Notes: generated by a model from the letters alone, not told the origin. Counted from the first letter of the stretch, positions 7,545-54,388 are shown. The stretch: 64,000 nucleotides of DNA from Candidatus Aminicenantes bacterium (GCA_963705895.1 OY970122.1:588744-652743), one strand, 5' to 3'. A program made the numbers and translations.

Positions 7545-8069
7545 ATGGGGGTTCGCCGAAAATCCAGAGAAGCCGCGCTCCAGCTTCTCTACCAGGCCGA
7601 GTTCGAGGAATCGGCCTCGAAGGCGGAGCTGGCCCGGTTTTGGGCGTCCCGTAAAGAGGACCGCTCGGTTCGCGAGTATGCCGATGAGCTCGTCCTGGGC
7701 ATCCTGGAGCATCGCGACGAGCTGGACAAGATGATCCAGGCGGTTTCGAAGAATTGGCGGGTTAGCCGGATGCCGATCATCGACCGCAACATCCTGCGGC
7801 TGGCGTCCTACGAGATGCGCTATGTGCCGGGGCTGGCTCCGGCCGTTGTCATCAACGAAGCCATCGAGATCGCCAAGCGTTACAGCGGCCAGGAAGCGTC
7901 CGTGTTCGTCAACGGCATCCTGGACGGGATCCGAAAGAGTGTCGAGCGTTCCGCGCCGCCCGCCGAGGGCGACCAACCTCCCCAAAAAGGAAAACGGAAT
8001 GAAAAAGGAACAGAGCCCGAAGCCCCCCGCCCCTCCGGCCGCGGGTCCCGGCGAAAGCAGCCTGAGTGA
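7545..8069 (+). CDS. nusB: transcription antitermination factor NusB (with low-complexity C-terminal extension)
   Basis: RRKSREAALQLLYQAEF...NWRVSRMPIIDRNILRLASYEM...VVINEAIEIAKRYSGQEASVFVNGILD is canonical NusB, directly downstream of ribH. The Pro/Gly/Arg-rich tail overlaps the lysS start. Confidence 0.85.
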   Translation: MGVRRKSREAALQLLYQAEFEESASKAELARFWASRKEDRSVREYADELVLGILEHRDELDKMIQAVSKNWRVSRMPIIDRNILRLASYEMRYVPGLAPAVVINEAIEIAKRYSGQEASVFVNGILDGIRKSVERSAPPAEGDQPPQKGKRNEKGTEPEAPRPSGRGSRRKQPE

Positions 8070-9528: not shown

Positions 9529-9529
9529 G

Positions 9530-13805: not shown

Positions 13806-13866
13806 TGGTTTCAGACAGCCGAAGAAGCGTTTGTTCCAATCGATGATCGACAAAGGAGGTATATCG

Positions 13867-14412
13867 ATGACAAAGTCAAAGGCAGTCTACACGATCCTTC
13901 CCCTTTTTCTCACGGTTCTCTTCGTCTCGGCCGGCCTGGCCCAGCAGGGGGTGAAGATCGGCGTGATCAACTCCCAGGATGTCCTGGAGAAATCCGTCGA
14001 AGGCAAGAAGGTCATCGCCCGGCTCCAGGAGACGGACAAGAAGAACCAGACCCTCATGGCCAAGACCGATGACGAGATTCGGGCGCTGGAGACCAAGCTC
14101 AGCACCCAGCGGTTGACCCTGAGCGAGGAAGCCCTGGTCCAGCTCAGTTCCGACCTGGACAAGAAGAAGAAGGATCGGACCCGGTTCGCCGAGGACGCCA
14201 CCCGGGACATCCAGGAACTCCAGCAGAGGCTTTACCTCAAGCTCCAGTCGGAGCTCCTGGTCATCATCGAGGGCATCGGCAAGGAAAAGGGTTATGACCT
14301 GATCCTCGACCTGGGCAAGAGCGGGGCCGTCTTCTTCAACCCGGCCATAGACATCACGACCGAGGTCATCAAGCGCTACGACGCCAGCAAGGCCACGCCC
14401 CCGGCCAAATAA
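13867..14412 (+). CDS. skp: periplasmic chaperone Skp (OmpH family)
   Basis: AAGGAGG RBS then MTKSKAVYTILPLFLTVLFVSAGLAQQGVKIGVINSQDVLEKSVEGKK...; coiled-coil-rich; position after bamA. Confidence 0.75.
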   Translation: MTKSKAVYTILPLFLTVLFVSAGLAQQGVKIGVINSQDVLEKSVEGKKVIARLQETDKKNQTLMAKTDDEIRALETKLSTQRLTLSEEALVQLSSDLDKKKKDRTRFAEDATRDIQELQQRLYLKLQSELLVIIEGIGKEKGYDLILDLGKSGAVFFNPAIDITTEVIKRYDASKATPPAK

Positions 14413-14876: not shown

Positions 14877-15687
14877 CGTCGTCATCCATCCCACCGCGAC
14901 CGTCCACCCCCAAGCGCAGTTGGAGGAAGGCGTCCAGGTGGGGCCCTATTGTCTCATCGGTCCCCGGGTTGTTCTTCACCGGAACGTCCGGCTGGAAGGG
15001 CATGTCGTCATCCAGGGCCGGACCGAGGTGGGGCCGGACTGCCTCTTCTCTCCCCATTCGGTCATAGGCACCGAGCCCCAAGATGTTGCCTATAAGGGTG
15101 AAGAGACGCGAGTTGAGATCGGGAGCGGGAACGTCTTCCGGGAGTTCGTTAGCATCCACCGTGGAACGGCCGGGGATGAAGGGCTGACCCGCCTGGGCGA
15201 CAAGAACTACCTGATGGCCTTCGCCCACGTGGGCCATGACTGCCGGATCGGCAACGAAACGGTGCTCACCCACGGCGTCACCCTGGGCGGGCATGTCGCG
15301 GTCGAGGATTTCGCCAACATCGGCGGGCTGACCGGAGTGCACCAGTTCTGCCGGATCGGCCGCTATGCCTTTATCGGAGGTTATACCGTCCTGACCCAGG
15401 ACGTCGTTCCCTTTGCCAGGGTGGCCGGAAGCCGGCCCGCCCACTTTTTTGGGTTGAACCTGGTCGGCCTCCGGCGGCGGGGTTTCACCAAAGAGCGTCT
15501 CCGGGAACTGAAGGACATCTTCAAGGTCATGTTCTATTCCGACCTGAACGCCAGTCAGGCGGCGGACAAGATCAAGGCCGACTTCCCGGCGAACGAGGAT
15601 GGACAGGAGCTGCTTCGCTTCATCAGCTCCTCCAAGAGAGGTTTCGTCAAAAAGGTGTCCGACCAATGGGACCTCGAATCGGGCTGA
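14863..15687 (+). CDS. lpxA: acyl-ACP--UDP-N-acetylglucosamine O-acyltransferase LpxA
   Basis: Left-handed beta-helix hexapeptide repeats (IHPTATVHPQAQLEEGVQVGPYCLIGPRVVLHRNVRLEGHVVIQG...), ...GDKNYLMAFAHVGHDCRIGN...; 14-nt overlap with fabZ. Confidence 0.9.
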   Translation: MTGPDVVIHPTATVHPQAQLEEGVQVGPYCLIGPRVVLHRNVRLEGHVVIQGRTEVGPDCLFSPHSVIGTEPQDVAYKGEETRVEIGSGNVFREFVSIHRGTAGDEGLTRLGDKNYLMAFAHVGHDCRIGNETVLTHGVTLGGHVAVEDFANIGGLTGVHQFCRIGRYAFIGGYTVLTQDVVPFARVAGSRPAHFFGLNLVGLRRRGFTKERLRELKDIFKVMFYSDLNASQAADKIKADFPANEDGQELLRFISSSKRGFVKKVSDQWDLESG

Positions 15688-16475
15688 TCGCCGGGTCCGG
15701 AGAATTCTCCCTTTTCGTGCTGGATGAAGCCCGACGAAGGGGTTTCTTTTGCGCCGTCCTGGCCGTTCCGGGCGAGGCCGCGGACGAGCTCGAGGCCCGG
15801 GCGGATGCTTGCCTCCGCTCAGACCCCGGCCGGGTCGCCGAGGCTGTCGCGTTCTTCCGAAAGCACGAGGTCCGGGACATCATGTTTGCCGGGAAGATTG
15901 ACCCCTCCGCCGTTTTTCAGACCGAGGGGCAGGATGAAACGGCCCGGAACCTGGTTAAAACCCTTGGGGACAAGAGGCCTTCGGCTCTGATCCGACGCGC
16001 CATCGATTTCTTGACCGCTCAGGGCTTCTCCGTCATGGACCCGGAGCCGTTCCTCGGTTCGCTTCTGTGCGAGGAAGGTCTCCTGACCGCGCGGGTTCCG
16101 TCCCCGGAGGTGATGGCCGACGTCGACTTCGGCTGGCCCCTGGCCCGGACCATCGCCGACCAGGATATCGGCCAAACCCTCGTCGTCAAGGACGGCTTGG
16201 TCGTCGCCGTCGAAGGCCTGGAGGGGACGGATGAGGCCGTTCGCCGCAGCGGCCGCTTGGCCGGCCCGGGCACGGTCGTGCTCAAGGTCGGTCGAACATC
16301 CCAGGACCGGCGGGTCGACCTCCCGGCTGTGGGCTTGACCACGGTCCGCAGCCTGATCGAGGCCGGCGCCTCGGCCCTCTGCCTCGAAGCGGGCCGAGTG
16401 CTCGTTTTCCGAAGAACGGAGGCCGCGGCCCTGGCCGAGTCCAGCGGGGTGGTCATGATGGCCCGGCGAGGCTGA
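15666..16475 (+). CDS. lpxI: UDP-2,3-diacylglucosamine hydrolase LpxI (DUF1009 family)
   Basis: N-terminus MGPRIGLIAGSGEFSLFVLDEARRRG matches the LpxI M..IGLIAG.G.LP start; about 270 aa; sits directly after lpxA. Confidence 0.7.
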   Translation: MGPRIGLIAGSGEFSLFVLDEARRRGFFCAVLAVPGEAADELEARADACLRSDPGRVAEAVAFFRKHEVRDIMFAGKIDPSAVFQTEGQDETARNLVKTLGDKRPSALIRRAIDFLTAQGFSVMDPEPFLGSLLCEEGLLTARVPSPEVMADVDFGWPLARTIADQDIGQTLVVKDGLVVAVEGLEGTDEAVRRSGRLAGPGTVVLKVGRTSQDRRVDLPAVGLTTVRSLIEAGASALCLEAGRVLVFRRTEAAALAESSGVVMMARRG

Positions 16476-36392: not shown

Positions 36393-37147
36393 GCGTCCGA
36401 GTGCGGGACCTGTCCTATCCGCGTGGAGATTTCCTCCTCCATATCGACGCCCTGCAATTCGAATCCGGCCGTCTGACATCGATCGTGGGGCCGAACGGGG
36501 CGGGGAAGACCACGCTCCTCAAATGCCTGGCCGGGCTGTTCCCCGTAGCCAAGAACCACATCTTCATTGAGGACCGGGACATCGCTACCCTGCGGGAGGC
36601 TGAACGGGCCAGGCTCATCGGCTACGTTCCGCAAGAGCATAACCCCGTCTTCAACTACTCGGTCCTGGATTTCGTGCTCATGGGCCGGGCCGCCTATCTG
36701 CCCCTGTTCTCTTTGCCCTCGGCCGAGGATGAACGGATGGCGGAAGAATCCCTGGCTTTTGTCGGCCTGGAGAGTTTCGCTTCCCGGCCGTATTTCGACC
36801 TCAGCAGCGGCGAGCGCCGGCTCATCCTGATCGCCCGGTCCCTGGCCCAGCGGGCCAAGATCCTCCTGCTTGACGAGCCGACCTCATTCCTGGACCCCAA
36901 GCACGAGATGGAGATCCTGGAGCTCAGCCGAAAGCTGGCTGTGGAACGCGGTCAGACGGTCCTCCTGACCCTGCACAATTTAGACATGGCGGTCAAGTAC
37001 TCCGACAGCCTGGTGTTCATGAAGGCCGGGGGAGTGTTCGCTTCGGGCCTGCCGCAGGACATTTTGAGCGACTCGCTCCTAGAATCCGTCTATGACGTCA
37101 GGATGCGGATCGTCGATTACGAAGGCCGGAAACTCATCCTGCGCTAA
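36389..37147 (+). CDS. ABC transporter ATP-binding protein (FecE/BtuD-like)
   Basis: GTG start overlapping the permease stop (GTGA), GGAGGG RBS; Walker A GPNGAGKTTLLKCLAG, signature LSSGERRLILIARSL, Walker B ILLLDEPTSFLD. Confidence 0.85.
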   Translation: MSVRVRDLSYPRGDFLLHIDALQFESGRLTSIVGPNGAGKTTLLKCLAGLFPVAKNHIFIEDRDIATLREAERARLIGYVPQEHNPVFNYSVLDFVLMGRAAYLPLFSLPSAEDERMAEESLAFVGLESFASRPYFDLSSGERRLILIARSLAQRAKILLLDEPTSFLDPKHEMEILELSRKLAVERGQTVLLTLHNLDMAVKYSDSLVFMKAGGVFASGLPQDILSDSLLESVYDVRMRIVDYEGRKLILR

Positions 37148-37307
37148 GGGAGCTGCCGGGCGTCCATCATCGTAGAGGGTTTCCGGGTTCAACCGGATTC
37201 AGCGATCACTCACGCCGGAATTAACGTCCGATTGGCGCAGGATTGCAGGCAGGGCAACGTCGAGACTCGCACTCTGACCTGCTCAACTCCAACCTGTCTG
37301 CGAACAA

Positions 37308-37343
37308 ATTGACTTTCAATGAAAAAGTAATTACAGTTATTAC
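37308..37343 (+). promoter_or_regulatory. putative sigma70-type promoter with palindromic operator upstream of the mazEF-fusion gene
   Basis: TTGACT - 17 nt - TACAGT, only about 7 nt before the ATG (leaderless-like). Overlapping palindrome GTAATTAC AG TT ATTAC, typical of TA autoregulation operators. Confidence 0.35.
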
Positions 37344-37997
37344 ATGAAATCGACTGAGCTCAAAGTCTCTCGTATCGGAAACTCCCGCGGGGTCCGGCTT
37401 CCTGCGGCGTTGTTAAAACGATATCGCATCGGAGCTGCTGTCCTCATGGAGGAGACGAGCGAGGGTATTTTCCTGCGGCCCGTCGGCCCTGTGGTGGAGA
37501 AGCTTTCATGGGAAGATACGGTCCGCGAGATGGCGGCCGGCCGCGAAGACTGGGGCGATTGGGATGCGGTGGACGCGGACGGATTGGAAAATATTCTGTG
37601 GGCAACCGAAGGCGCCGGGAGAATAACGGAAAAGAAAGCCTGGTATCGGTCGGCTCGGCGAATCAAGCAAGAGACCGTTCTGCGTTATGAGATTCGATGG
37701 GTTTCACTGAATCCGACCCAGGGTGCGGAAATGGGGAAGAAACGTCCAGCGGTCATCGTCAGTCTGGACGCGCTCAATGAAAGATTACAGACCGTGACAA
37801 TCTGCCCTCTGACCAGCCGGTTACATCCCTCCTGGCGCTCCAGGTTGCAGGTCCGATGCAATCGACAAGAGGCCGAAATCGCAGTGGACCAGATAAGAAC
37901 TATCGCCAAATCTCGGCTGGGAGCCAAAATCGCCGCGTTGACAGAAGACGAAGCCTCCGCGTTGAGGCGGATTATCACCGAAATGTATGGCGAGTGA
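37344..37997 (+). CDS. fused MazE-like antitoxin (SpoVT/AbrB) and MazF/PemK-like endoribonuclease toxin in a single ORF
   Basis: N-terminal MKSTELKVSRIGNSRGVRLPAALLKRYRIGAAVLMEETSEGIFLRPV... with acidic EDWGDWDAVDADGLENILW tail (MazE/PemI-like). C-terminal ...RYEIRWVSLNPTQGAEMGKKRPAVIVSLDALNERLQTVTICPLTS... (MazF/PemK-like). No stop or canonical internal start between the two halves. Confidence 0.65.
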   Translation: MKSTELKVSRIGNSRGVRLPAALLKRYRIGAAVLMEETSEGIFLRPVGPVVEKLSWEDTVREMAAGREDWGDWDAVDADGLENILWATEGAGRITEKKAWYRSARRIKQETVLRYEIRWVSLNPTQGAEMGKKRPAVIVSLDALNERLQTVTICPLTSRLHPSWRSRLQVRCNRQEAEIAVDQIRTIAKSRLGAKIAALTEDEASALRRIITEMYGE

Positions 37998-38015
37998 CCC
38001 GAAGCCCCGTTCAAA

Positions 38016-38043
38016 ATCTTGACATCTTTACAAACAGAGTGAT
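38016..38043 (+). promoter_or_regulatory. near-consensus sigma70 promoter (TTGACA - 16 nt - TGnGATAAT) upstream of the integrase remnant
   Basis: TTGACA at 38016-38021 and extended -10 TGATAAT at 38036-38043; a TTG start with GGGGGA RBS follows at 38072. Confidence 0.3.
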
Positions 38044-38071
38044 AATCTCCATCTATATTAACGGGGGATAT

Positions 38072-38206
38072 TTGAAGACAAGACAGGAAGTAGTTTTCGT
38101 CGCGGAACAAAAAGCCGCTTATTCCGCCCGGCCTCAAAGGTTGCTCGATCGACTTCGCGAGGCGTTCCGCATCCGACATTATAGCCGCCGTACGGAAGAG
38201 ACCTAA
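38072..38206 (+). pseudogene. tyrosine recombinase / integrase N-terminal fragment (IntI/XerD-like), truncated after about 44 codons
   Basis: (M)KTRQEVVFVAEQKAAYSARPQRLLDRLREAFRIRHYSRRTEET* matches the conserved integrase N-terminus (IntI1: ...[24 protein letters not shown]...). The rest of the recombinase is absent in all frames downstream. Confidence 0.4.
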
Positions 38207-38326
38207 TGACCGATCGGGCACTCGTTTCACAAGCGTCTAATTCATCACATGAAGTCGCATCCGGGTTGTTATATGGATCTATGTAAACATTGTTAGCTCA
38301 ACGTAAACATTAGAGGGAGACTCTCA

Positions 38327-39490
38327 ATGACAAAGAAGACTACGCCAATCGGAAGTGAAACAGCGGCAAAGAGGGCATACCTGAAGCAATCAGATGTGCC
38401 TTCCGCTTCCTTAGAAGAAGCACTTCGAATGCCAGAGGCAATCCTCGATCATTATGCAGGAAAGGCGACTACACCATTACAGGTTGCCAAAGCCTTGAAC
38501 GTGGATCCAAAAGGCTCACAGATTCGTGTTCTTTCGGGGGCCGCAATGGCTTTTGGCCTCATCGAAGGGGGTGCGCAAGCAACTAACATTTCTGTGACCG
38601 ATCTTGCACGACGAATTCTTCGCCCTAAAGAGGAGAATGATGATCTGGCTGCAAAACGAGAGGCAGTTTTGAAACCCAGAGTTTTCGGTGATTTTCTTCG
38701 CCAATATGACGGTAATGCCTTCCCCCGTCGAGAGATCGCATTGAATGTACTCGAAGAAATGGGAGTACCACGTGAGAAGACAGAGGAGGTTCTTGAACGA
38801 ATTGATGCTAGTGCACGCTCCGTAGGCTTTATCGCGGAGATTAGGGGGAAAAATTATGTCACTCTCCAAGGAGCCGCGACTTCCATTACCGCAGATGTAT
38901 CAAGTTCCGAGATAAGTCCAGAACCCGAGCAAGAGAAACTAACCGCACCGGAGATCAAGAGATTGACGATCCCCCCTCCTATCGTACAGCCGAAAGGAGC
39001 TGCACTTACTGCTGCTATCGCAGACGACCAGAGACGCCGCCGGGTGTTCATTACGCACGGTAAAAACAGAGACTTGGTAGAGCCAATTAAAAAACTCTTA
39101 GAGTATGGTGAGCTAGAGCCAGTGGTTTCTGTCGAGAAGTCATCTGTATCCAAACCCGTCCCTGAAAAAGTTCTGGATGACATGAGGGGCTGTGGAGCGG
39201 CAATTATCCACGTAGAGGTGGAGCAAATGATTGTCGACAGGGAGGGGAATGAACATGTTTTATTAAATCCCAATGTCCTAATTGAAATAGGTGCCGCCAT
39301 GGCTTTCTATGGTCGGCGGTTTATTTTATTAGTCCGGGAAGGGGTGAAACTGCCATCGAATCTTCAGGGCCTTTTTGAGGTACGGTACGGTGGCGATACC
39401 TTGGATGCAACTGCTACTATTAAGCTACTCGAAGCTATTAAAGATATCAAGAACTATGATCTCCCCACACAACCAGAGGTTGAGAGCTAA
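38327..39490 (+). CDS. two-domain protein: unknown N-terminal domain + C-terminal TIR-like nucleotide-binding domain (PF10137 / CAP12-like); candidate defence effector
   Basis: AGGGAG RBS. C-terminus RRVFITHGKNRDLVEPIKKLLEYGELEPVV...NPNVLIEIGAAMAFYGRRFILLVREGVKLPSNLQGLFEVRY matches the VFIVHG...LGLEPI...RQNVIFELGYFIGKLGR.RV..L...GVE.PSD..G pattern of the TIR-like family. Markedly lower GC than flanking genes. Confidence 0.55.
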   Translation: MTKKTTPIGSETAAKRAYLKQSDVPSASLEEALRMPEAILDHYAGKATTPLQVAKALNVDPKGSQIRVLSGAAMAFGLIEGGAQATNISVTDLARRILRPKEENDDLAAKREAVLKPRVFGDFLRQYDGNAFPRREIALNVLEEMGVPREKTEEVLERIDASARSVGFIAEIRGKNYVTLQGAATSITADVSSSEISPEPEQEKLTAPEIKRLTIPPPIVQPKGAALTAAIADDQRRRRVFITHGKNRDLVEPIKKLLEYGELEPVVSVEKSSVSKPVPEKVLDDMRGCGAAIIHVEVEQMIVDREGNEHVLLNPNVLIEIGAAMAFYGRRFILLVREGVKLPSNLQGLFEVRYGGDTLDATATIKLLEAIKDIKNYDLPTQPEVES

Positions 39491-39500
39491 CTAATGAATC

Positions 39501-39526
39501 CAGCGGACGGCTTTCAGCCTCCGCTG
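39501..39526 (+). terminator. stem-loop between the TIR-like gene and the next ORF (possible attenuator/terminator)
   Basis: CAGCGGACGGC-TTTCA-GCCTCCGCTG imperfect inverted repeat 10 nt after the stop; no T-tract; followed by a strong RBS (GAGGGAGGAGG) for the next gene. Confidence 0.25.
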
Positions 39527-39557
39527 TTCCGTACGTAATGAGGGAGGAGGCCTTTGC

Positions 39558-40094
39558 ATGAGGCTATGTGCTTTTGGTGGCGTGGTTCTTGCTATGGTCG
39601 CGCTATCGGGGCAAGCGATGGAATCTCCCGCCCAGAGTCCGACGCCTGCTGAGATCAAGGCTGTGGACGCGTTCATAAAAACCCAAGAGCGACTCCGGAG
39701 CACGCAGTACGTCTCGGATAACTTGCTTGAGTTTCGCGAGGGGCGCCAGTATGCGTTTGACGAAGCCGGCGGGAGCGGCAAGACGATACTCGCTGTGCGT
39801 TATACTTTGGAGGAGGGCAACAACTGGACTCTATTCCTCGCAGCCTTTTCAAGGCCGACAATGAAGTGTCAAGCCCACGCACGGGTGGGTGGCAAGGGCT
39901 ATCGCAACGTTGATATTAGCGGGGTTAAGGGCGATATGATCTATTTGAAGATCGAATTGTACTCAACCTACGACGCTCTCTGTTGTCCCAGCGTCCCTGG
40001 CTCAACAATCTACGAACTGACCGACGATTCGCTCGTCGAAAAGGAACTTCGGGTCGACTGCGAGGGTTGGAGGCCGCCAGAGAGGCGAAGATGA
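39558..40094 (+). CDS. hypothetical secreted protein (signal peptide, 4 Cys)
   Basis: MRLCAFGGVVLAMVALSGQA signal peptide; strong RBS; low GC; no recognisable domain. Confidence 0.45.
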   Translation: MRLCAFGGVVLAMVALSGQAMESPAQSPTPAEIKAVDAFIKTQERLRSTQYVSDNLLEFREGRQYAFDEAGGSGKTILAVRYTLEEGNNWTLFLAAFSRPTMKCQAHARVGGKGYRNVDISGVKGDMIYLKIELYSTYDALCCPSVPGSTIYELTDDSLVEKELRVDCEGWRPPERRR

Positions 40095-40266
40095 ACTTTG
40101 GCTCGTCAGGCACTTGTCAAATGCTATGGAAATATTCGAATATTATAAGAAATAATAACCCAGCAAGGATAAAATGACCGGCTAACCAGGCGCAGTATCT
40201 GACCGCAAATCCACGGTGCACCATTGCGCAAGGTGAGCGTGCCGCCGACCGGACAAGAGGAATATC

Positions 40267-41133
40267 ATGATCGACCCAGGGTTGAGCGGAAAAAGCATGT
40301 TAGTGACGGGCGCCAATAACCCGAGAGGGATCGGTGCGGCGACGGGAAGGGCATTCGCCAGGTTGGGGTGTAAGGTTTTTCTCCATTTCTTCCGAGAGCC
40401 TGCTCCGGCCGGCAAACCGCCTGATATTCCCGGCGAGGAGCTATATCACGCGCTGAATGCCCGATCGGCTGAAGATGTTGTTGAGGAAATCAGAAAAGCC
40501 GGAGGGACGGCGCACAGTTGGGAGGCGGACCTTGCGGATCCAAACACCATTCCCCAACTGCTCGACCAAGCCGAACATGCCGTCGGACCCGTCGAAGTTC
40601 TTGTGAACAACGCAGCGCACTGCGTCTGGGATACGTTCCTCCCGAAGGCAGGCAACGTTTATGAAGAGGACTCCGCTTATCAAGCGCTGCCGCTGACGCC
40701 ATCGAGCCACGATGCGCACTTTGCCATCAACAGCCGGGTGCCGGCCCTGCTTATAGCCGAATTTGCCCGGCGTCGCATTGCCTCCGGGGCTGGATGGGGA
40801 CGGATCATCAACATCAGTACCGACGCGTCTTCTTCGCACCCCGGGGCCATCTCGTATGGCGCAAGCAAACACGCGCTCGAGTCTTACTCGCGAGCTGCTG
40901 CGTTGGAGCTGGCACGTTATGGAATCACGGTCAACGTGATCGCGCCGGGCGCCATTCAGACCGGTTGGATTTCGCCGGCGCTTGAGGCACAGTTAGCCAA
41001 ACGTTTTCCTCTCGGTCGCATTGGTCTCCCGGACGATATCGCAGATGTCGTGGTCTTCCTCGCATCAGAGCAAGCGCGCTGGGTCACCGGCCAAACACTT
41101 TATGTTGGGGGCGGCAATGTCATGCCGCTCTAG
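40267..41133 (+). CDS. short-chain dehydrogenase/reductase (SDR) family oxidoreductase
   Basis: TGANNPRGIGAATGRAFARLG (TGxxxGIG Rossmann), NNAA motif VLVNNAAH, catalytic Y..K (ISYGASKHALE), ...IAPGAIQT.... Confidence 0.8.
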   Translation: MIDPGLSGKSMLVTGANNPRGIGAATGRAFARLGCKVFLHFFREPAPAGKPPDIPGEELYHALNARSAEDVVEEIRKAGGTAHSWEADLADPNTIPQLLDQAEHAVGPVEVLVNNAAHCVWDTFLPKAGNVYEEDSAYQALPLTPSSHDAHFAINSRVPALLIAEFARRRIASGAGWGRIINISTDASSSHPGAISYGASKHALESYSRAAALELARYGITVNVIAPGAIQTGWISPALEAQLAKRFPLGRIGLPDDIADVVVFLASEQARWVTGQTLYVGGGNVMPL

Positions 41134-41187
41134 CGCTCGAGGGTTGGCTAGGGGATAGCTGAACTTGACGGCTGCACATATCACATC

Positions 41188-41718
41188 ATGGCTGAAGTTT
41201 GTCGTTATTTGAAAAACATGAACTTGGAATTCACGACAGTGCTTAATCAAGAACGAGGCACTATCGCGGCACTGCTGAAGCGGGCCTACGCCGATTTGGT
41301 TAAGAGCAATCCATTGCTATGGGAACCTGAGCAGGCGAAATGGGATCAATACGATCATGATGTATTTGCGCAGCCGCAGACTATCGGGGCCTGCATATTT
41401 CTTACCTGGCTGGATGGCCGGATAGCCGGGTTTGGATCGTGGGACCCGCGACAGAGGCCTCGCTTCGGCATCGTCGGACACAACTGTATATTGCCGGAGT
41501 ATAGAGGAAAGGGTTTGGGCAAACTGCAAATTCGTGAAATCCTTCGACGCTTTCAAGAAGTGGCGATTAAGACGGCTAAAGCTTCTACCAATGACAGCCC
41601 CTTCTTTGTTCCCGCTCAGCGGATGTATGAGGCGTGCGGATTCCGAGAAATCCGACGTATTCCCTGGCATCGCGATCCAGGACAGAGGATAATCGAATAC
41701 GAGAAGGAAATCGGCTAA
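41188..41718 (+). CDS. GNAT-family N-acetyltransferase
   Basis: ...FGIVGHNCILPEYRGKGLGKLQIREILRRF... acetyl-CoA binding motif (R/Q-x-x-G-x-G/A); alternative start at 41218. Confidence 0.7.
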   Translation: MAEVCRYLKNMNLEFTTVLNQERGTIAALLKRAYADLVKSNPLLWEPEQAKWDQYDHDVFAQPQTIGACIFLTWLDGRIAGFGSWDPRQRPRFGIVGHNCILPEYRGKGLGKLQIREILRRFQEVAIKTAKASTNDSPFFVPAQRMYEACGFREIRRIPWHRDPGQRIIEYEKEIG

Positions 41719-41791
41719 AAAAGAGCTCCAGCGGACATGGACGAGCCGCGCCGCTGAGCTATGACGTTAGATCGCAGGGGAGGTGGGGAGC

Positions 41792-42178
41792 ATGTCAGAC
41801 GAATCAGCTGTGAGAGAAGTCATCGCCAAGATCGCCGCCGCGTGGCGCCTGAAGCAATTCGACGGGCTTGATGAGTGCTTCCATGAAGACGCTGTTATTG
41901 TTGGGCCGGGCTACGTCGAGGTTGGCCGCGGCAGAGCGAAGTGCGCCGAAAGCTACAGAGAGTTCGCAACCAATGCGGCGGTTCTGTCGTATCACGAGTC
42001 TGGGCATACGCTTCGAATATGGGAGACAACGGCAGTTCACACCTTTGCCTGGGAAATGACATACCAACGCGACCAAGGGCCGAAGCATGAGACAGGCACG
42101 GATCAGCTCGTGTTCCAGCTCAACTCAGCCGGTTGGCAGCTCGTGTGGCGTTATATGTATTTCGAACCATCGAGCTGA
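41792..42178 (+). CDS. NTF2/SnoaL-like fold protein (DUF4440-like), hypothetical
   Basis: GGAGGTGGGGA RBS then MSDESAVREVIAKIAAAWRLKQFDGLDECFHEDAVIVGPG... typical of the SnoaL-like/NTF2 superfamily. Confidence 0.55.
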   Translation: MSDESAVREVIAKIAAAWRLKQFDGLDECFHEDAVIVGPGYVEVGRGRAKCAESYREFATNAAVLSYHESGHTLRIWETTAVHTFAWEMTYQRDQGPKHETGTDQLVFQLNSAGWQLVWRYMYFEPSS

Positions 42179-42213
42179 CCGACTAGAGTACGCTCATGTG
42201 ACAAATCACAAGG

Positions 42214-42687
42214 ATGAATTGCATGTATATCTTAATGATCATTCTGCTGATGTTCGTCTTCCCAATAGCTTCCGTTCTCATGGAGACATTCATTTTCAAG
42301 AGCACCATAGGAACCGCACTCTTAATCGGGAAATGGTTTGCTTTTTGGGCTGTCGGTATCAGGCTAGGCTTAGCTGGTCTACGCCAGATTGTTAGTCCCA
42401 AGTTCACGGCCCAACGGATATTTGGAATCAAGAGCGCTGAACCATTGGTCATAGTTCAAGAGTTAGGGTTCGCAAATCTATCGATCGGCATATTGGGAAT
42501 CATCACCATTTTTAATAGCGCTTGGATTACGCCTGCTGCAATCGCCGGCGGCCTCTTTTATGGACTTGCGGGCATAAGGCATCTAACGAGGAAGAGGAAG
42601 AACCTGCTTGAGAACAGCGCCATGCTCTCAGATTTATTAATGTTCATCATTTTGGCCATCTATCTTATAGTCATCATGGCGCATTAA
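42214..42687 (+). CDS. small integral membrane protein (4 TM), hypothetical
   Basis: Very hydrophobic (MYILMIILLMFVFPIASVLMETFIF..., ...LLMFIILAIYLIVIMAH); lowest GC of the island. Confidence 0.45.
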   Translation: MNCMYILMIILLMFVFPIASVLMETFIFKSTIGTALLIGKWFAFWAVGIRLGLAGLRQIVSPKFTAQRIFGIKSAEPLVIVQELGFANLSIGILGIITIFNSAWITPAAIAGGLFYGLAGIRHLTRKRKNLLENSAMLSDLLMFIILAIYLIVIMAH

Positions 42688-42733
42688 TATTCTGCATCCT
42701 AACACCTGTTCCGCTTGAGGCGGGCGCGGCCGA

Positions 42734-44683
42734 TCATAAGGTCTGTTCCTTGCGGATGATGATCTTAAAAGGGGCGCGAACCAGGACCTTGAACTCTTCC
42801 TCAGGAAGATCCTCCACGAAGCAGGACGGGGTGTCGTGGACGATCAAATAGCGATAGGGGTTCTTTTTCAACCAGTCCAGGCCGATCCTCCTGGGCGGGG
42901 GAAAAATGGGATACACGGTCCGCTCAAGCCTATCGCCAAACATTGGATATTCAAAGTCCTCCGGCGTAAGGATGGTCGCCACCTCGGCCTTGGGGGGGAT
43001 CCATTGGGCCAGATCCCGATACAAGAACTTCTCCGGCCAGTTTTTCATGCGGCGCTCGCTCCGCGTATCTTTCCAAATCGCGTGCGGGCCGACGAGGGGC
43101 TTCTGGACATCGGTCAACACGGTTACGGCCAAGACGGTAATGGCCAAAACGATGACGAATCCCCGGATCGGAATGTGGAAGCGGCCGCGATCGAGCAGGC
43201 CGGCCGCGAGGGGGGCGATCAGGGTCATGACCGGGCAATAGAATCGACCGCGGAAAGGCGTCCACGCCTGGCTCCCCCCGAGGACCAGCACGAAGACGAC
43301 AAACGTCAGCGCCGGGACGAAACGAAGGTCTTTTTTGATCACGCCCATGACGAGCCAGTAAAGCACCAACGGCAGAAACACGCAAAACCCGAGGGGCCCA
43401 TAAAAGGAGCCGGCTTCGGTGGGCACGGGCACGGGAGTGGCGAAGACCAAGGGACTGCCCTTTTTGTCCAGTCTTCGATCGCGGGCCGGGATGTGGAGCG
43501 AATGAAAGACCTTGATCCCCTCGAAATTTCTGGCCTGTTCCACGCGGGCGGCGGCCGTTCTGGGCAGGCCCGTAAAATCTACGAAATCAAAAAGGTCCTT
43601 AGCGGCGTTGGTTCGGATCAGGGTCCAGCTCCAGGGCCGTATATTGTGGAGTTCTCTGTGGACGATCTCTGCCCTGCCCAGCGGCTTGCGATAATAGATC
43701 CAGCCCTGGGCGAAATTGAATAGGCCGAGAAGGACGAACCCGCCCAGGCATGCACCCGCCCAAACCATGAGCCGGCGAAAGGGCCGCGGCGAGCGGGCCA
43801 GGGCGAGATAGGAGAGCCCGATCAAGAACCCGGGGAGGAGCATGACGGCCGTGTATTTCATTCCTAGGGCCAGCCCCATGGCCGCGCCCGACAGGACAAG
43901 CATCCCCTCATGTTTCGTTTTGAGCCCGAGAAGAAGGAGATAGGCCATGGCCGCGACCATGGCCGCCGTAGTCAGATCGTTCTGGGTTGTGGTGGACTGA
44001 AGGACGACTATGGGAAGGGTAAGATAGACGAACGAAGCGAAGGCCGCCTGCGGCCGTAACGCTCCGAACACGCGGGCCATCCCGAAAATTGAGGTCATGG
44101 CCGCCAGGGCGGCGGACCATTGGACGAAGCCCGCCAGGAAGTCGCGGTGAAGGAAGACCATACTCCACAGGCAGCCGATCTCAGCGTTGAAGGGGTAGGC
44201 TGTTTGGGGCAGGCAAGGGCTGGGCCACGGAGCCAGGGAGTGGTGCTGGATCCAGAAGGCGACCCGCGCCAGGTGATAGACCATGCTGTCCATGTTGTTG
44301 GGCGGGACCAGGATGTTGATGATCGCGAGCAGAACGCTGGCCAAGCCCACTGACAAACCCAGCGCCCAGAGGTCAGGCCAAGACTTAAAAGAGGCGGCCA
44401 GCTCCGTTCGCCGGGGGAGGATGATACCTGGGTGGGAAGGCCGTCCAACGAAGCGCCAAACAAGAAAAGCGAGGCAGGCCAGAATGGCATGCGCCGCCAG
44501 CATGGCCCAGGGCCCGACAAGGGCCCCGAGGGACAAGACCTCCGCAGCGAAAACAATATCGGTCCAGACGAGGACGAAGAGTGAGACCAGAAAACCGGGC
44601 AGAGTCGGTGGACGGAGGCTCGCGGTCAGAAGATAGGCAAAGGCAATAACGAGGACGACATCGACGGCGTAGGGCATGGCCAT
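42734..44683 (-). CDS. GT39/GT83-type (ArnT/PMT-like) membrane glycosyltransferase
   Basis: N-terminal multi-TM region with ...MDSMVYHLARVAFW... loop and 12+ TM, then a C-terminal soluble domain; high GC again. Confidence 0.6.
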   Translation of the reverse strand: MAMPYAVDVVLVIAFAYLLTASLRPPTLPGFLVSLFVLVWTDIVFAAEVLSLGALVGPWAMLAAHAILACLAFLVWRFVGRPSHPGIILPRRTELAASFKSWPDLWALGLSVGLASVLLAIINILVPPNNMDSMVYHLARVAFWIQHHSLAPWPSPCLPQTAYPFNAEIGCLWSMVFLHRDFLAGFVQWSAALAAMTSIFGMARVFGALRPQAAFASFVYLTLPIVVLQSTTTQNDLTTAAMVAAMAYLLLLGLKTKHEGMLVLSGAAMGLALGMKYTAVMLLPGFLIGLSYLALARSPRPFRRLMVWAGACLGGFVLLGLFNFAQGWIYYRKPLGRAEIVHRELHNIRPWSWTLIRTNAAKDLFDFVDFTGLPRTAAARVEQARNFEGIKVFHSLHIPARDRRLDKKGSPLVFATPVPVPTEAGSFYGPLGFCVFLPLVLYWLVMGVIKKDLRFVPALTFVVFVLVLGGSQAWTPFRGRFYCPVMTLIAPLAAGLLDRGRFHIPIRGFVIVLAITVLAVTVLTDVQKPLVGPHAIWKDTRSERRMKNWPEKFLYRDLAQWIPPKAEVATILTPEDFEYPMFGDRLERTVYPIFPPPRRIGLDWLKKNPYRYLIVHDTPSCFVEDLPEEEFKVLVRAPFKIIIRKEQTL

Positions 44684-45415
44684 GGACGTGCTGTTCTCGA
44701 AAATACTCGAGTCACTCCTGGCCCCCTAGCCACTCTGAAGACAAAACTAAGCTCGAGAAACATCTACTAAAATACCATTCGGCAAATAGGGAGTCAAGCT
44801 CGCTGCGATGTCAACAAATCCTCGGGGCGGCCAAAACGATGTTCTTTGGGCATAAAACCCTCCCGCGCCGGCTGAAAGACGATGGGCTCCCGCTCGCCCT
44901 GATAATGAAATGATTAACAATGGTCAACGTTCTCCTCAGCCGCCATTGACGCAACCCGCTCAAAGACAAGGGAGGGCGGAGGCTTCTCGGCCGGGAGCAT
45001 CATCTTTATTGTTAAATAGCAGGCTTGGGATATGGGGCATCGTCAGAAGCTGAGTTCCGGCTTGAATTGTCGTTCGCCCCGCGGAAAGAAGTGATAAAAC
45101 GAATAGCCTTCCGAGCGGCGTCTTCATAAATCGGACAGCGCCGAAATCTTGCGCCGGAGAAAAAATCCAATTCTGCCCGCGGAACCGCCCCCTTGGGGAA
45201 ACTTAGCAATTTATTAACAACTTCTTAGCAGGATTTTGACAACTCGAATCCCTTGCAGTCCTAAATTAGGAGCGACCAGAATGAAGACCATCAGAGCACG
45301 GCGTTTGACTTTCCGTCCGAAAGAGACTAGGTTTTTATTAAAGAGGGGGAGTTCATTTTCCAAAGCTTTCAAGCCCTATGATTCGATAGGCACATCTCAA
45401 AAACAGGAGGTTTTG

Positions 45416-50901: not shown

Positions 50902-52062
50902 TTATCGCTCGGGCAGAAGATTCTCTTTTTTTAAATGGAGGACTCGCTGTCCTTCCGCGTTTTTGATTTCCATGCGGATTTCCCGGATGCCGCTATCGTT
51001 GAGTTGATGGAGAAGATCGAACAGGTCCGACCCGCTCAGCGTTTTCCCGTTCAACGATACGATCTCATCCTCGGGGGCGACACCGGCTCTATCGGCAGGC
51101 GAACCTGTCCAGACACCACGAACCGAGATCTTTCCGCCATCGTTCAAATGAACCTGCATGCCGAAGGAGAATTCGTTGGCCGGAATCGGAGATCCCGATT
51201 GAGGGATGAATCGTATTTCGTCTTTGGGATAATTGATGATCGTTATATATGAGGCCAAAAAATCCCTACCCAGGAGAAGCATCGACAGCACAGAGGGAAG
51301 TTCGGCGGAAAAGGCCAGGAGATTCTGAACTTCCGCGCTTCCCAAGGAGATGGAATCGATGCGCCCCAGGTAGTTGTCCCGGGAGGTTGTCCCGGGCCAG
51401 TGGTAGATATGTCCCTTGGCTTTGATCCAGCCTCCTTTTTCGGAGATTTCCAATTTTTTGAGGATGTCGGGGGGCAAAACCAGGGGATAGGGCTGACCGG
51501 TATCCACCATGGCTTCCGCTTCATAATTTCCGTTCAATTTGCATTTGAGTACCGGAGCAGAATTCACGGGATGATGGGTGAATTTGAGCAAAAAACCTTT
51601 TTGCGGATCTCCCGTGACCGAGGTGTCATTGGAAAGAACGAGAGTTTTCCGATGGTAATCGAGGGTGACCTTGAACCGGTCCAGCAGGTCGGATCCGATC
51701 AAACCGTGGATCGTGACGCCCGGATATGTTTCGAACATCTTAAATAACACCGGAGAGGCAACGCAAAAAACGGAATCAATCCGGTAATTGCCGATATCCA
51801 GACTGTTCATTTTGACCATCGTGCCTTTTCGTTTTAATTGAAGTTTATCCGCGGTTACACTATCCAGCATCGTTACACCGCCGGTATCGACAATAAAATT
51901 ATACTCTTCGGGATGATCGTTGATTTTGCCCTTGATGAAAATAATGTGTCCTTTCAGTTCAAAAGGTATGATGCCTTCCTTATGGGCCGTTTCATTCTGT
52001 GGATAGGCGAAGAGCGCGGAGACGAAGACAAGAACGCTGAAAACAAAGGCGGTTTTTCTCAT
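50902..52062 (-). CDS. secreted retropepsin-like aspartic protease (two DTG motifs) with C-terminal PDZ domain
   Basis: Start MRKTAFVFSVLVFVSALFAYPQ (signal peptide); IVDTGGV and MVDTGQP catalytic motifs; C-terminal PDZ (...ISVRGVWTGSPADRAGVAPEDEIVSLNGKTL...). Confidence 0.6.
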   Translation of the reverse strand: MRKTAFVFSVLVFVSALFAYPQNETAHKEGIIPFELKGHIIFIKGKINDHPEEYNFIVDTGGVTMLDSVTADKLQLKRKGTMVKMNSLDIGNYRIDSVFCVASPVLFKMFETYPGVTIHGLIGSDLLDRFKVTLDYHRKTLVLSNDTSVTGDPQKGFLLKFTHHPVNSAPVLKCKLNGNYEAEAMVDTGQPYPLVLPPDILKKLEISEKGGWIKAKGHIYHWPGTTSRDNYLGRIDSISLGSAEVQNLLAFSAELPSVLSMLLLGRDFLASYITIINYPKDEIRFIPQSGSPIPANEFSFGMQVHLNDGGKISVRGVWTGSPADRAGVAPEDEIVSLNGKTLSGSDLFDLLHQLNDSGIREIRMEIKNAEGQRVLHLKKENLLPER

Positions 52063-52283
52063 GTTGCGACTCGTTGGCTTGGATTTGAAAAGCATCCTAT
52101 CGCATCTCTGCCGGAAAAAGCAACTGTCTGCGTCACCTGTTTTATGGCATCTTCTGTGAAGCAAATCATCATCGTCGTCCTAGCTGGGGGAAGCCCTTTC
52201 CCGGCGAAATAAACGGCAGTGAGGTCAAGACGGGCTAAAACGATAGAAGATGAAAGCGCGGACGCGACCCTGCTCTTTGTTCT

Positions 52284-52460
52284 CTATTTGGTCTTGCGCA
52301 AACCGGCTACTCCGTTAGCTAGAAAAGCACCGGAGGCTACGCCGCTGAAAAAAAAGATAAGGAATTTCGCCAGGGATAATTCACTTTGAGTGAAAAACAC
52401 GACGGCGACGCACAGAAAGACAAGGCTTGAAAGAAAAAAGCTAAAGGAACGTTTTTTCAT
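52284..52460 (-). CDS. small hydrophobic peptide (58 aa, 2 TM), hypothetical
   Basis: Found by reading the minus strand: MKKRSFSFFLSSLVFLCVAVVFFTQSELSLAKFLIFFFSGVASGAFLANGVAGLRKTK with GGAGGA RBS 9 nt upstream. Below the ORF-track length cutoff. Confidence 0.3.
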   Translation of the reverse strand: MKKRSFSFFLSSLVFLCVAVVFFTQSELSLAKFLIFFFSGVASGAFLANGVAGLRKTK

Positions 52461-52568
52461 CTCTTAAATCCTCCGCCTCTCAACATTTAAATAAATAGCG
52501 TCCATTCGAACAATTTAATTTGAATTAAATAGCACAATAATCAAAGGTTATCAATGATGATTCCGTTG

Positions 52569-52994
52569 TCACTTCATCGGTATCGTCCCTTTTACGGTCT
52601 GGGTTTGGTGGGCGCCCTTGGTGGTGTGCACCAGGAAGCCGTCCTGCCCGGGCAGCCAGATTTCAGCCAGCACATAAACTGTGAAGTATTCCGTGTATGA
52701 CGGCTCGAAGTTTCCCACCGCATCGAAGACAAGCTGGGGTTCCGCAAGGGGCGGCTGGGGTTGCGGCAACCTATTGATGAAGGGGACCTGAACTTCCTTG
52801 GCGGTCGAAATATAAAGAAAGCTGATCTTCCCTTCAGCCGTCAAGGCTACTTCGTAATCACCCGCAGGGAACTTTTGGTTTCCCGATTCGAATTTGAACG
52901 GGACCTTGAACGTCCCCTGGGCATAAGCCGAAGCATAGCCTGCGATGAGAACAAGGCCCATGGCCGCGAGAATCCAAACAACTTGACGCTTCAT
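52569..52994 (-). CDS. hypothetical secreted protein
   Basis: AAGGGGAAG RBS; MKRQVVWILAAMGLVLIAGYASAYAQ signal peptide; no recognised domain. Confidence 0.45.
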   Translation of the reverse strand: MKRQVVWILAAMGLVLIAGYASAYAQGTFKVPFKFESGNQKFPAGDYEVALTAEGKISFLYISTAKEVQVPFINRLPQPQPPLAEPQLVFDAVGNFEPSYTEYFTVYVLAEIWLPGQDGFLVHTTKGAHQTQTVKGTIPMK

Positions 52995-53008
52995 CGATCT
53001 TCCCCTTT

Positions 53009-54388
53009 TTACCGGATACTCGCCCACGGCACGCCCGCCACCGGTCCATCATCCGCCGAGGCCAGGGTCGTCGGAACGCCGTTCTTGAGCGCGTCTTCCA
53101 TGGCCATGACGAACGTATCGATCTCCTCGAGCGTGGTGTATACGTTGGGCGAAACCCGGAGGGCCTGGTAATCGAAGACCTGGTTCGGCGGGGCGCCGCC
53201 GACCAGCGGGACGGCGATGATCCGGTACTTGTCCATCAGGAACTTGGCCAGGTCCCTGACGTCGATCCCCTCGACGCTGACGGCGCACACCGCCCACGTT
53301 TCCGGCGGCTCGCCGAGGTTCGACAGGATCTTGACCCGCGGATATTTCTTGAGGGCGTTCGCCCAGCGAAGCGTCAGGTAGCGCAACCGGGCCGCCTTGC
53401 GCTCGCCCCCGATGGCCTGATGGAAGGCCAGAGCTTCGCCCAGGGCCGCCCGGATGGCCCAGGGATGCGTCCCGATGGACTCGAACTTGCGGATATCGTT
53501 GTCCTGCTGTTCGGGGGCGGCCTGCAGAGGCCAGAACCTCGGGATCATTTCCCGGCGTACGTACAGGCAGCCGTTGCCGATCGGCGCCAGCAGCCACTTG
53601 TGAAGGCTGACACCGTAGGCGTCGCACTCGAGGTCCCGCAGCTTGAACGGGAATTGACCCAAGGCGTGGGCGCCGTCGACGATCGTGACGATCCCCTTCG
53701 ATCGGGCCAGGCGGGAGAGCCGCTGAACCGGGAACATCTGGGCCGTCAGGTTGGTCACGTGGCAAAAATGGAAGACCTTCGTCCGCGGGGAGATGGCCTT
53801 CTCGAACCGCTGGTAAAGATCATCCCCAGTCGTCGGCACCGGGAACTGAAGGCGAGTGACCTTGATTCCCTCGCGCCGCAGGCGCTGGTCCCAGGTCGTC
53901 AGCATGCGCGGGTAGTCCTGCTCGGTAGTGATGACCTCGTCGCCGGCCTTGAGGTCGATCCCGTTTTGGACGATCTGCAGCGACTCGCTGGCGCCGCGCG
54001 TCAGGGCCAGCTCTTCCGGTTCGCATCCGAACTCCGCCGCCATCCGGAGACGGATCGTCTCGATGTTCTTGGCGACCATGCCCTGGTAATGGACGGGCAG
54101 CATGTTGATCATTTCCATGTACCGAAACTCCGATTCGAGCACGACCCTGGGGCACGGGGCGGTGAACCCGTTGTTCAAGTTGATAAGTTCGCGGTCGAGC
54201 TTGAAGGCGAGCTGGATCTCCCTCCAGTAGAACTCGTCCCTGGCCACTTCCTCGGGCAGACGGTCCGCGACCGATTGCGAAGCGGCCTCGACCCCCTCGA
54301 GTCCGCCGGGCTTGAGCGCATATCCCGCCGCCCCCACGGCTCCGCACAAACGCAGAAACGATCGTCGATTCAACATCTCAGACTTCAT
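53009..54388 (-). CDS. Tat-signal class V aminotransferase-fold PLP enzyme (cysteine desulfurase/isopenicillin-N-epimerase-like)
   Basis: Twin-arginine signal MKSEMLNRRSFLRLCGAVGAAGYA; class V fold (...FHFCHVTNLTAQMFPVQRLSRLARSKGIVTIVDGAHALGQFPFKLRDLECDAYGVSLHKWL...) with PLP-lysine context SLHKW. Confidence 0.75.
   Translation of the reverse strand: MKSEMLNRRSFLRLCGAVGAAGYALKPGGLEGVEAASQSVADRLPEEVARDEFYWREIQLAFKLDRELINLNNGFTAPCPRVVLESEFRYMEMINMLPVHYQGMVAKNIETIRLRMAAEFGCEPEELALTRGASESLQIVQNGIDLKAGDEVITTEQDYPRMLTTWDQRLRREGIKVTRLQFPVPTTGDDLYQRFEKAISPRTKVFHFCHVTNLTAQMFPVQRLSRLARSKGIVTIVDGAHALGQFPFKLRDLECDAYGVSLHKWLLAPIGNGCLYVRREMIPRFWPLQAAPEQQDNDIRKFESIGTHPWAIRAALGEALAFHQAIGGERKAARLRYLTLRWANALKKYPRVKILSNLGEPPETWAVCAVSVEGIDVRDLAKFLMDKYRIIAVPLVGGAPPNQVFDYQALRVSPNVYTTLEEIDTFVMAMEDALKNGVPTTLASADDGPVAGVPWASIR

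Follow-up and report, generated by a model that had tools for sequence, protein, structure and literature searches.

Clusters of attC sites lacking an integrase (CALINs), including those with a nearby intI pseudogene, were described by Cury et al. 2016 (PMC4889954), and an inverted group of integron integrases, of the Treponema denticola type, has been reported as well (PMC3607928, PMC4889954). Cassettes carrying defence genes are known as BRiCs in mobile integrons (bioRxiv 10.1101/2024.07.02.601719), and chromosomal integrons have been called "biobanks of gene cassettes", with roles in defence, including against phages and antibiotics (PMC12614218). Here we examine a low-GC segment at positions 37148–42733 of a 64,000-nucleotide stretch from Candidatus Aminicenantes bacterium (GCA_963705895.1 OY970122.1:588744-652743), hereafter the window. 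A preliminary description had taken this segment for a decayed integrative element or defence island inserted between an ABC importer and a glycosyltransferase gene. In our analysis it is probably a sedentary chromosomal integron, inverted in type and now decayed; elements of this kind are already known, and its host lineage is an uncommon one.

Landmarks of a probable eroded integron

The comparison starts from an intact form, L020, one of the contigs from metagenome data that are designated L0xx below. In L020, a fused mazEF gene is followed by the same promoter as in the window (TTGACA...TAATCT), an intact intI, attI repeats and co-oriented cassettes, each ending in an attC site; intI and seven attC sites lie on one strand, directed toward the cassettes. 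The L020 integrase has 344 amino acids, scores 482.9 bits against TIGR02249 (cut-off 265) and carries the IntI-specific insertion (..DRKYPNAPKEWRWQWVFP..), and three GTTAT-type (GGGGTGTTAT-type) repeats are found 3' of its stop codon. The L020 attC sites share a layout in which an R'' box (..AAC), a 5-nucleotide spacer, an imperfect stem with 1–2 bulged bases, a 6-nucleotide spacer and an R' box (GTT..) succeed one another. A cassette start complements the R'' box of the same cassette, a boundary rule seen at the following starts:

G/TTCGGC, with R'' box GCCGAAC
G/TTGGGG, with R'' box CCCCAAC
G/TTAGCT, with R'' box AGCTAAC

A covariance model, R1, was built from five L020 attC sites only, the variable loops of two of them trimmed by hand, and was run over the full window on both strands with filters off. 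Aligning the long attC sites with the short ones in MAFFT gave a result inconsistent with their structure, and this alignment was dropped. The integron landmarks of the window are these:

38019–38046, + strand: sigma-70-like promoter TTGACA-16-GATAAT, 11 of 12 matches, kept in contigs L002 and L060 and twice in L020
38057–38266, + strand: 5' remnant of intI, 210 nucleotides, residues 2–68, 57% identity, E 1.8e-16 (tblastn with L020 IntI)
38262–38298, + strand: attI-like remnant CGGGTTGTTATATGGATCTATGTAAACATTG/TTAGCT, inferred crossover between G38292 and T38293
39485–39541, + strand: degraded attC of cassette 1, 73% identical to L020 attC 4056–4113
40180–40250, + strand: possible attC remnant, R''-like GGCTAAC at 40180–40186 and no recognisable R'; weak, R1 negative
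41713–41772, + strand: well-preserved attC, R1 30.4 bits, E 7e-6, with no other significant hit on either strand of the 64 kb
42696–42750, + strand: possible terminal attC remnant ATCCTAAC; weak, R1 negative

The truncated tyrosine recombinase of the first description is real, and a strong promoter-like site precedes it. By its similarity to L020 IntI it is the remnant of an integron integrase (IntI), not of an island integrase. Its start codon is gone, two in-frame stops interrupt it and all sequence past codon ~68 is deleted, including the region of the IntI-specific insertion and the RHRY catalytic residues; tblastn with L020 IntI gave no further match in the 64-kb window. The promoter lies upstream of the remnant and faces the attI-like site and the cassettes. 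Contig L060, from a related species, has the promoter, a shorter intI stub and an attI-like site joined at the same stub-attI junction as in the window, which places the death of the integrase before the split of these lineages.

Directly past the stub, positions 38262–38298 agree in 27 of 41 columns with the last L020 attI repeat and junction downstream of intI, a score that none of 5000 shuffles reached. Its final hexamer, TTAGCT, opens cassette 1 and is the exact complement of AGCTAA in the R'' box of that cassette's own attC, as the boundary rule of L020 would have it.

As for the attC sites, that at 41713–41772 directly follows the stop codon of the GNAT gene; its R'' box is GGCTAAA and its R' box GTTAGAT, and the 13-bp stem is interrupted and has single bulged bases. 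Searched against some 468 kb from other loci, R1 gave significant hits only in L020, in L054 and at the ortholog of this same site in the sister-strain contig L002. The attC of cassette 1 (39485–39541) matches L020 4056–4113 in 44 of 60 columns, again with none of 5000 shuffles reaching the score; its R'' box AGCTAAC overlaps the stop codon of the TIR gene, and a CAGCGGA/TCCGCTG stem with a 2-nucleotide bulge follows. This site is damaged, with R' mutated to GTAATGA and the 3' arm short of one base, and R1 recovers only its inner stem as a partial hit of 7.5 bits. The pattern CAGCGG-N8-40-CCGCTG occurs in about 740 kb only in the L020 attC sites, at window positions 39501 and 41729, in the L002 ortholog and once in L023. 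The 10-mer TCCAGCGGAC, searched with one mismatch allowed, was not enriched, and only its two exact copies are relevant.

Two further boundaries are hinted at by the weaker motifs. In L002, GTTAGCT stands directly ahead of the block that begins with the SDR gene, and ATCCTAAC at 42696 is the complement of the TTAGAT start of cassette 4 save for one extra base, ATC(C)TAAC, with a short hairpin behind it. An imperfect 17-nucleotide direct repeat is present at the same place (42696–42712, ATCCTAACACCTGTTCC; 42733–42749, ATCATAAGGTCTGTTCC), its second copy spanning the stop and last codons of the GT39 gene. The array of cassettes may end at this repeat.

Probable cassettes and their genes

Reading from the attI-like site, the array would hold a TIR gene, a gene for a 178-amino-acid protein, SDR with GNAT, and DUF4440 with DUF6790, and would end at the GT39 stop codon, about four cassettes in all:

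38293–39535, + strand: cassette 1, TIR (gene 38327–39490, 387 amino acids), CAP12/PycTIR-type, Pfam PF10137 at 9e-18
39558–40094, + strand: putative cassette 2, a 178-amino-acid protein with a signal-peptide-like N-terminus; cassette status from position only
40267–41718, + strand: likely two-gene cassette 3, SDR (40267–41133) and GNAT (41188–41718), from Pfam
41783–42687, + strand: likely cassette 4, DUF4440/SnoaL-like (41783–42178) and DUF6790 membrane protein (42214–42687), from Pfam

Pfam and open reading frame (ORF) analysis agree with the genes and the shared orientation first reported, namely a mazEF fusion, TIR, the signal-peptide-like protein, SDR, GNAT, an NTF2-like protein (DUF4440/SnoaL) and a membrane protein (DUF6790). 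The 178-amino-acid protein had no Pfam, PADLOC or PDB match. The limits of the cassette 3 block are GTTAGCT (in L002) and the attC at 41713. Cassette 4 begins after G/TTAGAT, and the GC content at third codon positions (GC3) is 0.64 in its DUF4440 gene and 0.56 in its DUF6790 gene, as against at least 0.73 in core genes.

The TIR protein, in the first position, is a candidate anti-phage effector. It matches PDC-S35 (6e-12) and PycTIR (5e-7) in PADLOC and the PycTIR structure 8jsj in PDB (E 0.004). The best PDC-S35 match covers residues 229–355 and one model covers 144–350, leaving the N-terminal ~140 residues, a domain of unknown function, unmatched; PDC-S35 itself is a PADLOC single-gene candidate family and not a validated system, and our literature search found no paper mentioning it. 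A Pycsar or CBASS operon was considered and rejected, as Pfam detects no cyclase domain in the neighbouring genes. Homologues at 71–83% identity are found in contigs labelled Xanthomonadales, Planctomycetes and Azonexus; judged from these relatives, the TIR gene is highly mobile. The same TIR gene (71–79% nucleotide identity), with a promoter and attI-like repeats 5' of it, was also seen in L096 (5740–7190), L097, L098 and L099 (5880–7170), contigs unrelated to the window, in which neither an integrase nor an array accompanies it.

Composition and limits of the segment

The GC content of 37148–42733 is 0.526, compared with 0.595 for the remainder of the window, and lies below all of 473 windows of the same size elsewhere, whose minimum is 0.539. 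Sliding-window computation gave a non-uniform composition with its peak on the segment: the tetranucleotide distance to the remaining window reaches its maximum of 0.33 at 37001–42586, over a background of 0.10–0.16. The sharp drop in GC and codon usage noticed in the preliminary description is thus borne out, as is the higher GC of the flanks, which is about 61–63% rather than the roughly 65% then estimated. GC3 is 0.43–0.64 in the eight segment genes and 0.73–0.90 in the ABC importer, GT39, lysS, bamA and lolC; all eight segment genes are compositionally foreign, to differing degrees. The dip is uneven by gene (TIR 0.48, DUF6790 0.45, GNAT 0.51, SDR 0.59), which argues for a mosaic origin of the segment.

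All segment genes are on the + strand. To their left, the stop codon of the ABC ATPase gene is at 37147, and to their right a convergent PMT_2/GT39 gene has its stop codon at 42734. No tRNA gene was detected anywhere in the 64-kb window, no direct repeats flank 37148–42733, in line with the first reading of the ends, and an Rfam search of the window returned no match. The window carries lysS, lolCE and bamA and is therefore chromosomal DNA. The closest named relatives of LysS are Candidatus Aminicenantes proteins (71–72% identity), by which similarity the host genome is probably Aminicenantes-like.

Variation between strains and related species

A sister strain is represented by L002, a Logan contig found through a 98% identical GT39 relative and compared with the window by blastn:

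L002 1–11257, window 51507–40251: 97.3% identity
L002 14498–15267, window 38088–37322: 81.7% identity
L002 16527–18775, window 37148–34900: 95.5% identity

Similarity breaks at 37148/37149 and resumes at 40251. The left end of the segment at 37148 is exact. The SDR-GNAT-DUF4440-DUF6790 part (40251–42733) is common to both strains, and only 37149–40250 is strain-variable. The segment does lie between the importer and the glycosyltransferase, as first described, and it did not arrive there as one insertion. SDR-GNAT is 94–100% identical in L002 apart from the 5' part of GNAT; this stretch, 41151–41450, has 85% identity against 99–100% in the adjoining 300-nucleotide bins and is, by that pattern, a patch of local divergence or recombination.

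In place of the stub, the TIR gene and the 178-amino-acid gene, L002 has a 149-amino-acid gene, a 265-amino-acid gene (faint DUF4145) and, on the opposite strand, a 482-amino-acid bSEFIR, a known single-gene defence system (PADLOC 3e-121). An extra TIR-like gene of 267 amino acids sits between the ABC gene and mazEF; the coordinates of all these L002 genes are 11508–12956, 13012–14268 and 15649–16452. The mazEF alleles of the two strains are 82.7% identical and each is nearer to alleles of other species (85–86.5%), with flanks at 95–97%. Such a block identity of 82% against flanks of 95–97% argues for block replacement by homologous recombination and not for recent integrase activity; the strain difference looks like a swap of the whole block from mazEF to the attI-proximal genes.

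Four contigs from related species match the window at 77–85% nucleotide identity in the genes for the amino-acid transporter and the ABC importer: L060, L061, L063 and, for a shorter length, L064. mazEF stands directly 3' of the ABC ATPase gene in L060, L061 and L063, and after a 1.5-kb insertion in L064; being syntenic in several related species, it is an old resident and not recent cargo. The content 3' of mazEF differs in each of the four. Strain and species variation is concentrated beside attI. No homologue of the cassette proteins was found in any fetched locus. The slot in L060 (7971–14379) contains an LmuB-like ATPase of 823 amino acids (2.4e-26) and genes of 237, 388 and 410 amino acids, the 388-amino-acid gene having 37% GC and weak CARF/HEPN similarity.

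Other searches for relatives passed through the GT39 protein. A genome scan with the single GT39 protein found no relative, and one with a GT39 alignment gave only matches of 24–40% identity (Chloroflexota, Bacteroidales, Spirosomataceae) and no synteny. The gene neighbourhoods of GT39 homologues in other organisms are unrelated, and those at 53% identity are uninformative on presence or absence of the segment. The GT39/PMT_2 protein itself (42734–44683) has two paralogs, of 58% and 51% identity, on the same 3.31-Mb contig as the window.

Weighing the integron origin

Several observations speak against an integron, or at least blur it. The main caveat is that pieces of the platform may also move otherwise than by attI x attC recombination. 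A single attC is significant, the TIR cassette has a degraded one, and cassettes 2 and 4 are delimited by short weak motifs. The site at 38262–38298 is called attI-like from its position, similarity and architecture, which are not functional evidence for its role. The single-stranded DNA folding energy of the intergenic regions resembles that of shuffles, with no z-score below -1.8, and our own attC pattern scan is unspecific, with 98 relaxed hits in the window. Two-gene cassettes of 1–1.5 kb exceed the typical cassette size. Finally, no recognisable attC or attI occurs among the variable genes of L002, where bSEFIR is on the opposite strand. The attC pattern scan was dropped as evidence, as its strict mode found the L020 sites and none in the segment and its relaxed mode was unspecific.

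One rival view is that the site is a generic hotspot for defence genes after the ABC importer and mazEF, supplied again and again with unrelated DNA through homologous recombination in the flanks or through other mobile elements; the integron pieces (intI stub, attI-like site, TIR gene and one attC) would then have come as one imported fragment among several, and the genes from SDR to DUF6790 would be unrelated older acquisitions. The defence genes of the slot do vary by lineage, from the PDC-S35-like TIR of the window to bSEFIR and a TIR-like gene in L002 and the LmuB-like ATPase in L060, and the low identity of the variable block, between much more similar flanks, as well as the missing attC sites of the L002 genes, would suit such a hotspot. 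Moreover, L096–L098 carry a block 79% identical to 38269–39509, in which half an attC follows an attI-like site and the TIR gene, with neither integrase nor array, and in L096 this promoter-attI-TIR-half-attC block adjoins a type I restriction-modification system. Yet the attC at 41713–41772 is inside the block common to both strains, far from the TIR fragment; the genes share one orientation and lie close together, like those of the L020 array; and the intI deletion junction common to L060 implies that the platform has long been resident at the site. We consider the hotspot view unlikely as an explanation in its own right, and it is compatible with an integron origin, not a true alternative to it.

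Far less probable is a single decayed integrative element, an island of prophage-like or integrative and conjugative element (ICE)-like kind, inserted as a 5.6-kb unit by its own tyrosine recombinase. The recombinase remnant with its promoter, the toxin-antitoxin module, the foreign composition and the co-orientation of the genes first pointed that way. However, the remnant is IntI-like, and moving whole islands is not what IntI does; the sister strain keeps one half of the segment and has the other replaced; mazEF is syntenic in several related species; and composition is strongly spread from gene to gene, as the GC3 values show. The marks of an integrase-borne genomic island, that is att repeats, a tRNA and presence or absence as a unit, were not found. 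A prophage or ICE remnant in particular was rejected, since structural genes and genes for conjugation are absent and the integrase is of IntI type. Of the preliminary description, the foreign, accessory, decayed and defence-related character of the segment stands, and its insertion as a single unit by its own integrase falls.

An ordinary core region, with low GC owed to what its genes encode (membrane or secreted proteins) or to a local bias of mutation, is scarcely credible: other low-GC patches are present in the window (22–23, 28–29, 45–46 and 50–53 kb), yet this segment has the lowest GC and the top tetranucleotide deviation, part of it is replaced in a 97% identical strain, integron landmarks are present and close TIR homologues occur in distant phyla.

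How the integron may have worked and decayed

Taking the segment as a decayed integron, the platform would run from a self-promoted mazE-mazF through the strong promoter, the 210-nucleotide intI stub and the attI remnant into the array. From integron biology (PMC4889954, PMC3607928), IntI would have joined the folded attC of a circular cassette to attI, the newest cassette landing beside the promoter and older ones shifting away. Since arrays grow in this way, cassette by cassette at attI, neither a tRNA target nor direct repeats at the ends would be expected. The promoter at 38019–38046 may read through the stub into the TIR gene and would then probably drive cassette 1, because intI faces attI in this family. 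Going by their domain families, the TIR protein could be an effector that degrades NAD or aborts infection, and mazEF would stabilise the locus by making its loss costly. With intI dead, and its deletion junction present also in L060, local capture would now need an integrase in trans.

L020 holds a case of its own, with two platforms in tandem (3426–3625 and 8700–9960). In platform 1, the promoter and the first 17 nucleotides of intI are joined straight to attI, intI being cleanly absent, and the join lies at a GGGGGATAT motif of the intI 5' end with a similar attI repeat. After the platform-1 attI come four or five attC cassettes, mazEF, the intact intI, attI and three more cassettes.

Modules of promoter, attI and first cassette without an integrase were thus seen in the window, in L060, in platform 1 of L020 and beside the same TIR gene in L096 and L099. 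Perhaps they are a recurrent, possibly self-generated state and not random decay, a suggestion that we regard as rather improbable. If it were true, integrase-less platforms would hold a defence gene under a strong promoter and could swap cassettes with an integrase in trans, and the locus may be guarded by the single-chain MazE-MazF beside it.

The single-chain MazE-MazF

Ahead of the integron promoter lie the following features:

37309–37337, + strand: mazEF promoter-like site TTGACT-17-TACAGT, 9 of 12 consensus matches, kept in L002
37344–37997, + strand: single-chain MazE-MazF, an ORF of 217 amino acids, MazE-like at ~1–95 and MazF/PemK at ~114–217

The promoter-like site overlaps an inverted repeat, GTAAT..ATTAC, just 5' of the ATG, which is a likely operator. 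The MazF half matches PemK_toxin of Pfam at 3e-24 (85.6 bits). The MazE half, at the expected N-terminal position, matches MazE_antitoxin at 19.5 bits, under the 24.7-bit Pfam cut-off. The 217-amino-acid protein therefore has the toxin fold and, by this sub-threshold match, the antitoxin fold of a MazEF pair; the two separate genes of such a pair are replaced by one unbroken 217-codon ORF, in which no canonical start codon precedes the MazF domain. The L002 allele is likewise in frame over 217 amino acids.

A metagenome scan with these two alleles (window and L002) retrieved 80 loci, L016–L095. Among the 77 full related environmental loci, MazE and MazF are fused in 46 and split, with an ATGA overlap, in 31. 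The window and L002 alleles group by identity among split alleles, their linkers differ (IKQETVL versus VSQKIIT), and the nearest alleles to the window mazEF in other contigs are split, with the ATGA overlap. Fused alleles nested among split ones, with linkers that differ, seem to point to more than one origin of the fusion. The single-chain MazE-MazF proteins form a large natural family, and a literature search of limited extent turned up no paper that describes such natural fusions.

Single-polypeptide toxin-antitoxin systems have precedents in EzeT of E. coli (PMC4826407) and in the HicA-HicB fusion Slr1999 of Synechocystis (PMC4963859). As in these, antitoxin and toxin domains share one chain, which should yield an auto-inhibited toxin. 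The window protein is unlike them in belonging to the MazE-MazF family, with the antitoxin preceding the toxin, and in that its fusion is widespread (46 of 77).

Other features of the window

A second compositional anomaly lies at 50902–53027, with a GC of about 0.49 and a tetranucleotide distance of 0.22; it contains, on the minus strand, the gene for a 420-amino-acid retropepsin-like aspartyl protease that has a PDZ domain, and also a 152-amino-acid ORF without a family match. The intergenic stretch 44805–44946, which separates the GT39 gene from that for 5'-nucleotidase, resembles two separate places in L064, 4735–4876 at 78% identity and 6498–6611 at 74%. The longest lysS ORF (7822–9528) extends the N-terminus by ~80 codons beyond the family model; as the protein is annotated at 509 amino acids, the true start is probably internal.

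Comparison with known systems

If the integron reading is right, an unexplained low-GC island becomes a defined structure, an eroded integron, and the locus would add a further example of first-position defence genes in a chromosomal integron, from a lineage that is Aminicenantes-like, uncultured and little studied. Two strains that are 97% identical hold different TIR-family systems in the same slot. The locus also yields a lineage-specific attC/attI set which, with the intact L020 integrase, could be put to a direct test.

Set against a complete integron as IntegronFinder defines it, the intact intI is reduced to residues 2–68, and an attC is found near it at 41713–41772 by the L020-built model, 3.4 kb from the stub. 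A typical CALIN comprises two or more attC sites that share a strand and lie within 4 kb, whereas the window has one clear and one degraded site: 41713–41772 is significant, and 39485–39541, on the same strand and 2.2 kb off, reaches 7.5 bits with a mutated R'. The element thus corresponds to a CALIN in part only and is more eroded than a typical one. Unlike sedentary integrons and CALINs in general, it has a short array of about four cassettes, two of them apparently two-gene. It resembles them in its fixed chromosomal site across related lineages, in its compact co-oriented array of small, mostly uncharacterised genes, in the R''-L''-L'-R' layout of its attC sites with bulged bases, in the associated toxin-antitoxin module and in its decayed integrase.

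With the reported defence cassettes the locus shares a single-gene defence candidate in the first, best-expressed position and, in L002, bSEFIR in the same slot; it is unlike them in that the window TIR matches only the PADLOC candidate PDC-S35 and that the bSEFIR of L002 has no recognisable attC. The Treponema denticola-type integrons differ in host, which is Aminicenantes-like here, and in that mazEF stands directly upstream of the intI promoter in our locus. As in that inverted group, judged by orientation alone, the + strand carries the stub together with both attC sites and every cassette, and the same arrangement holds for the intact integron of L020.

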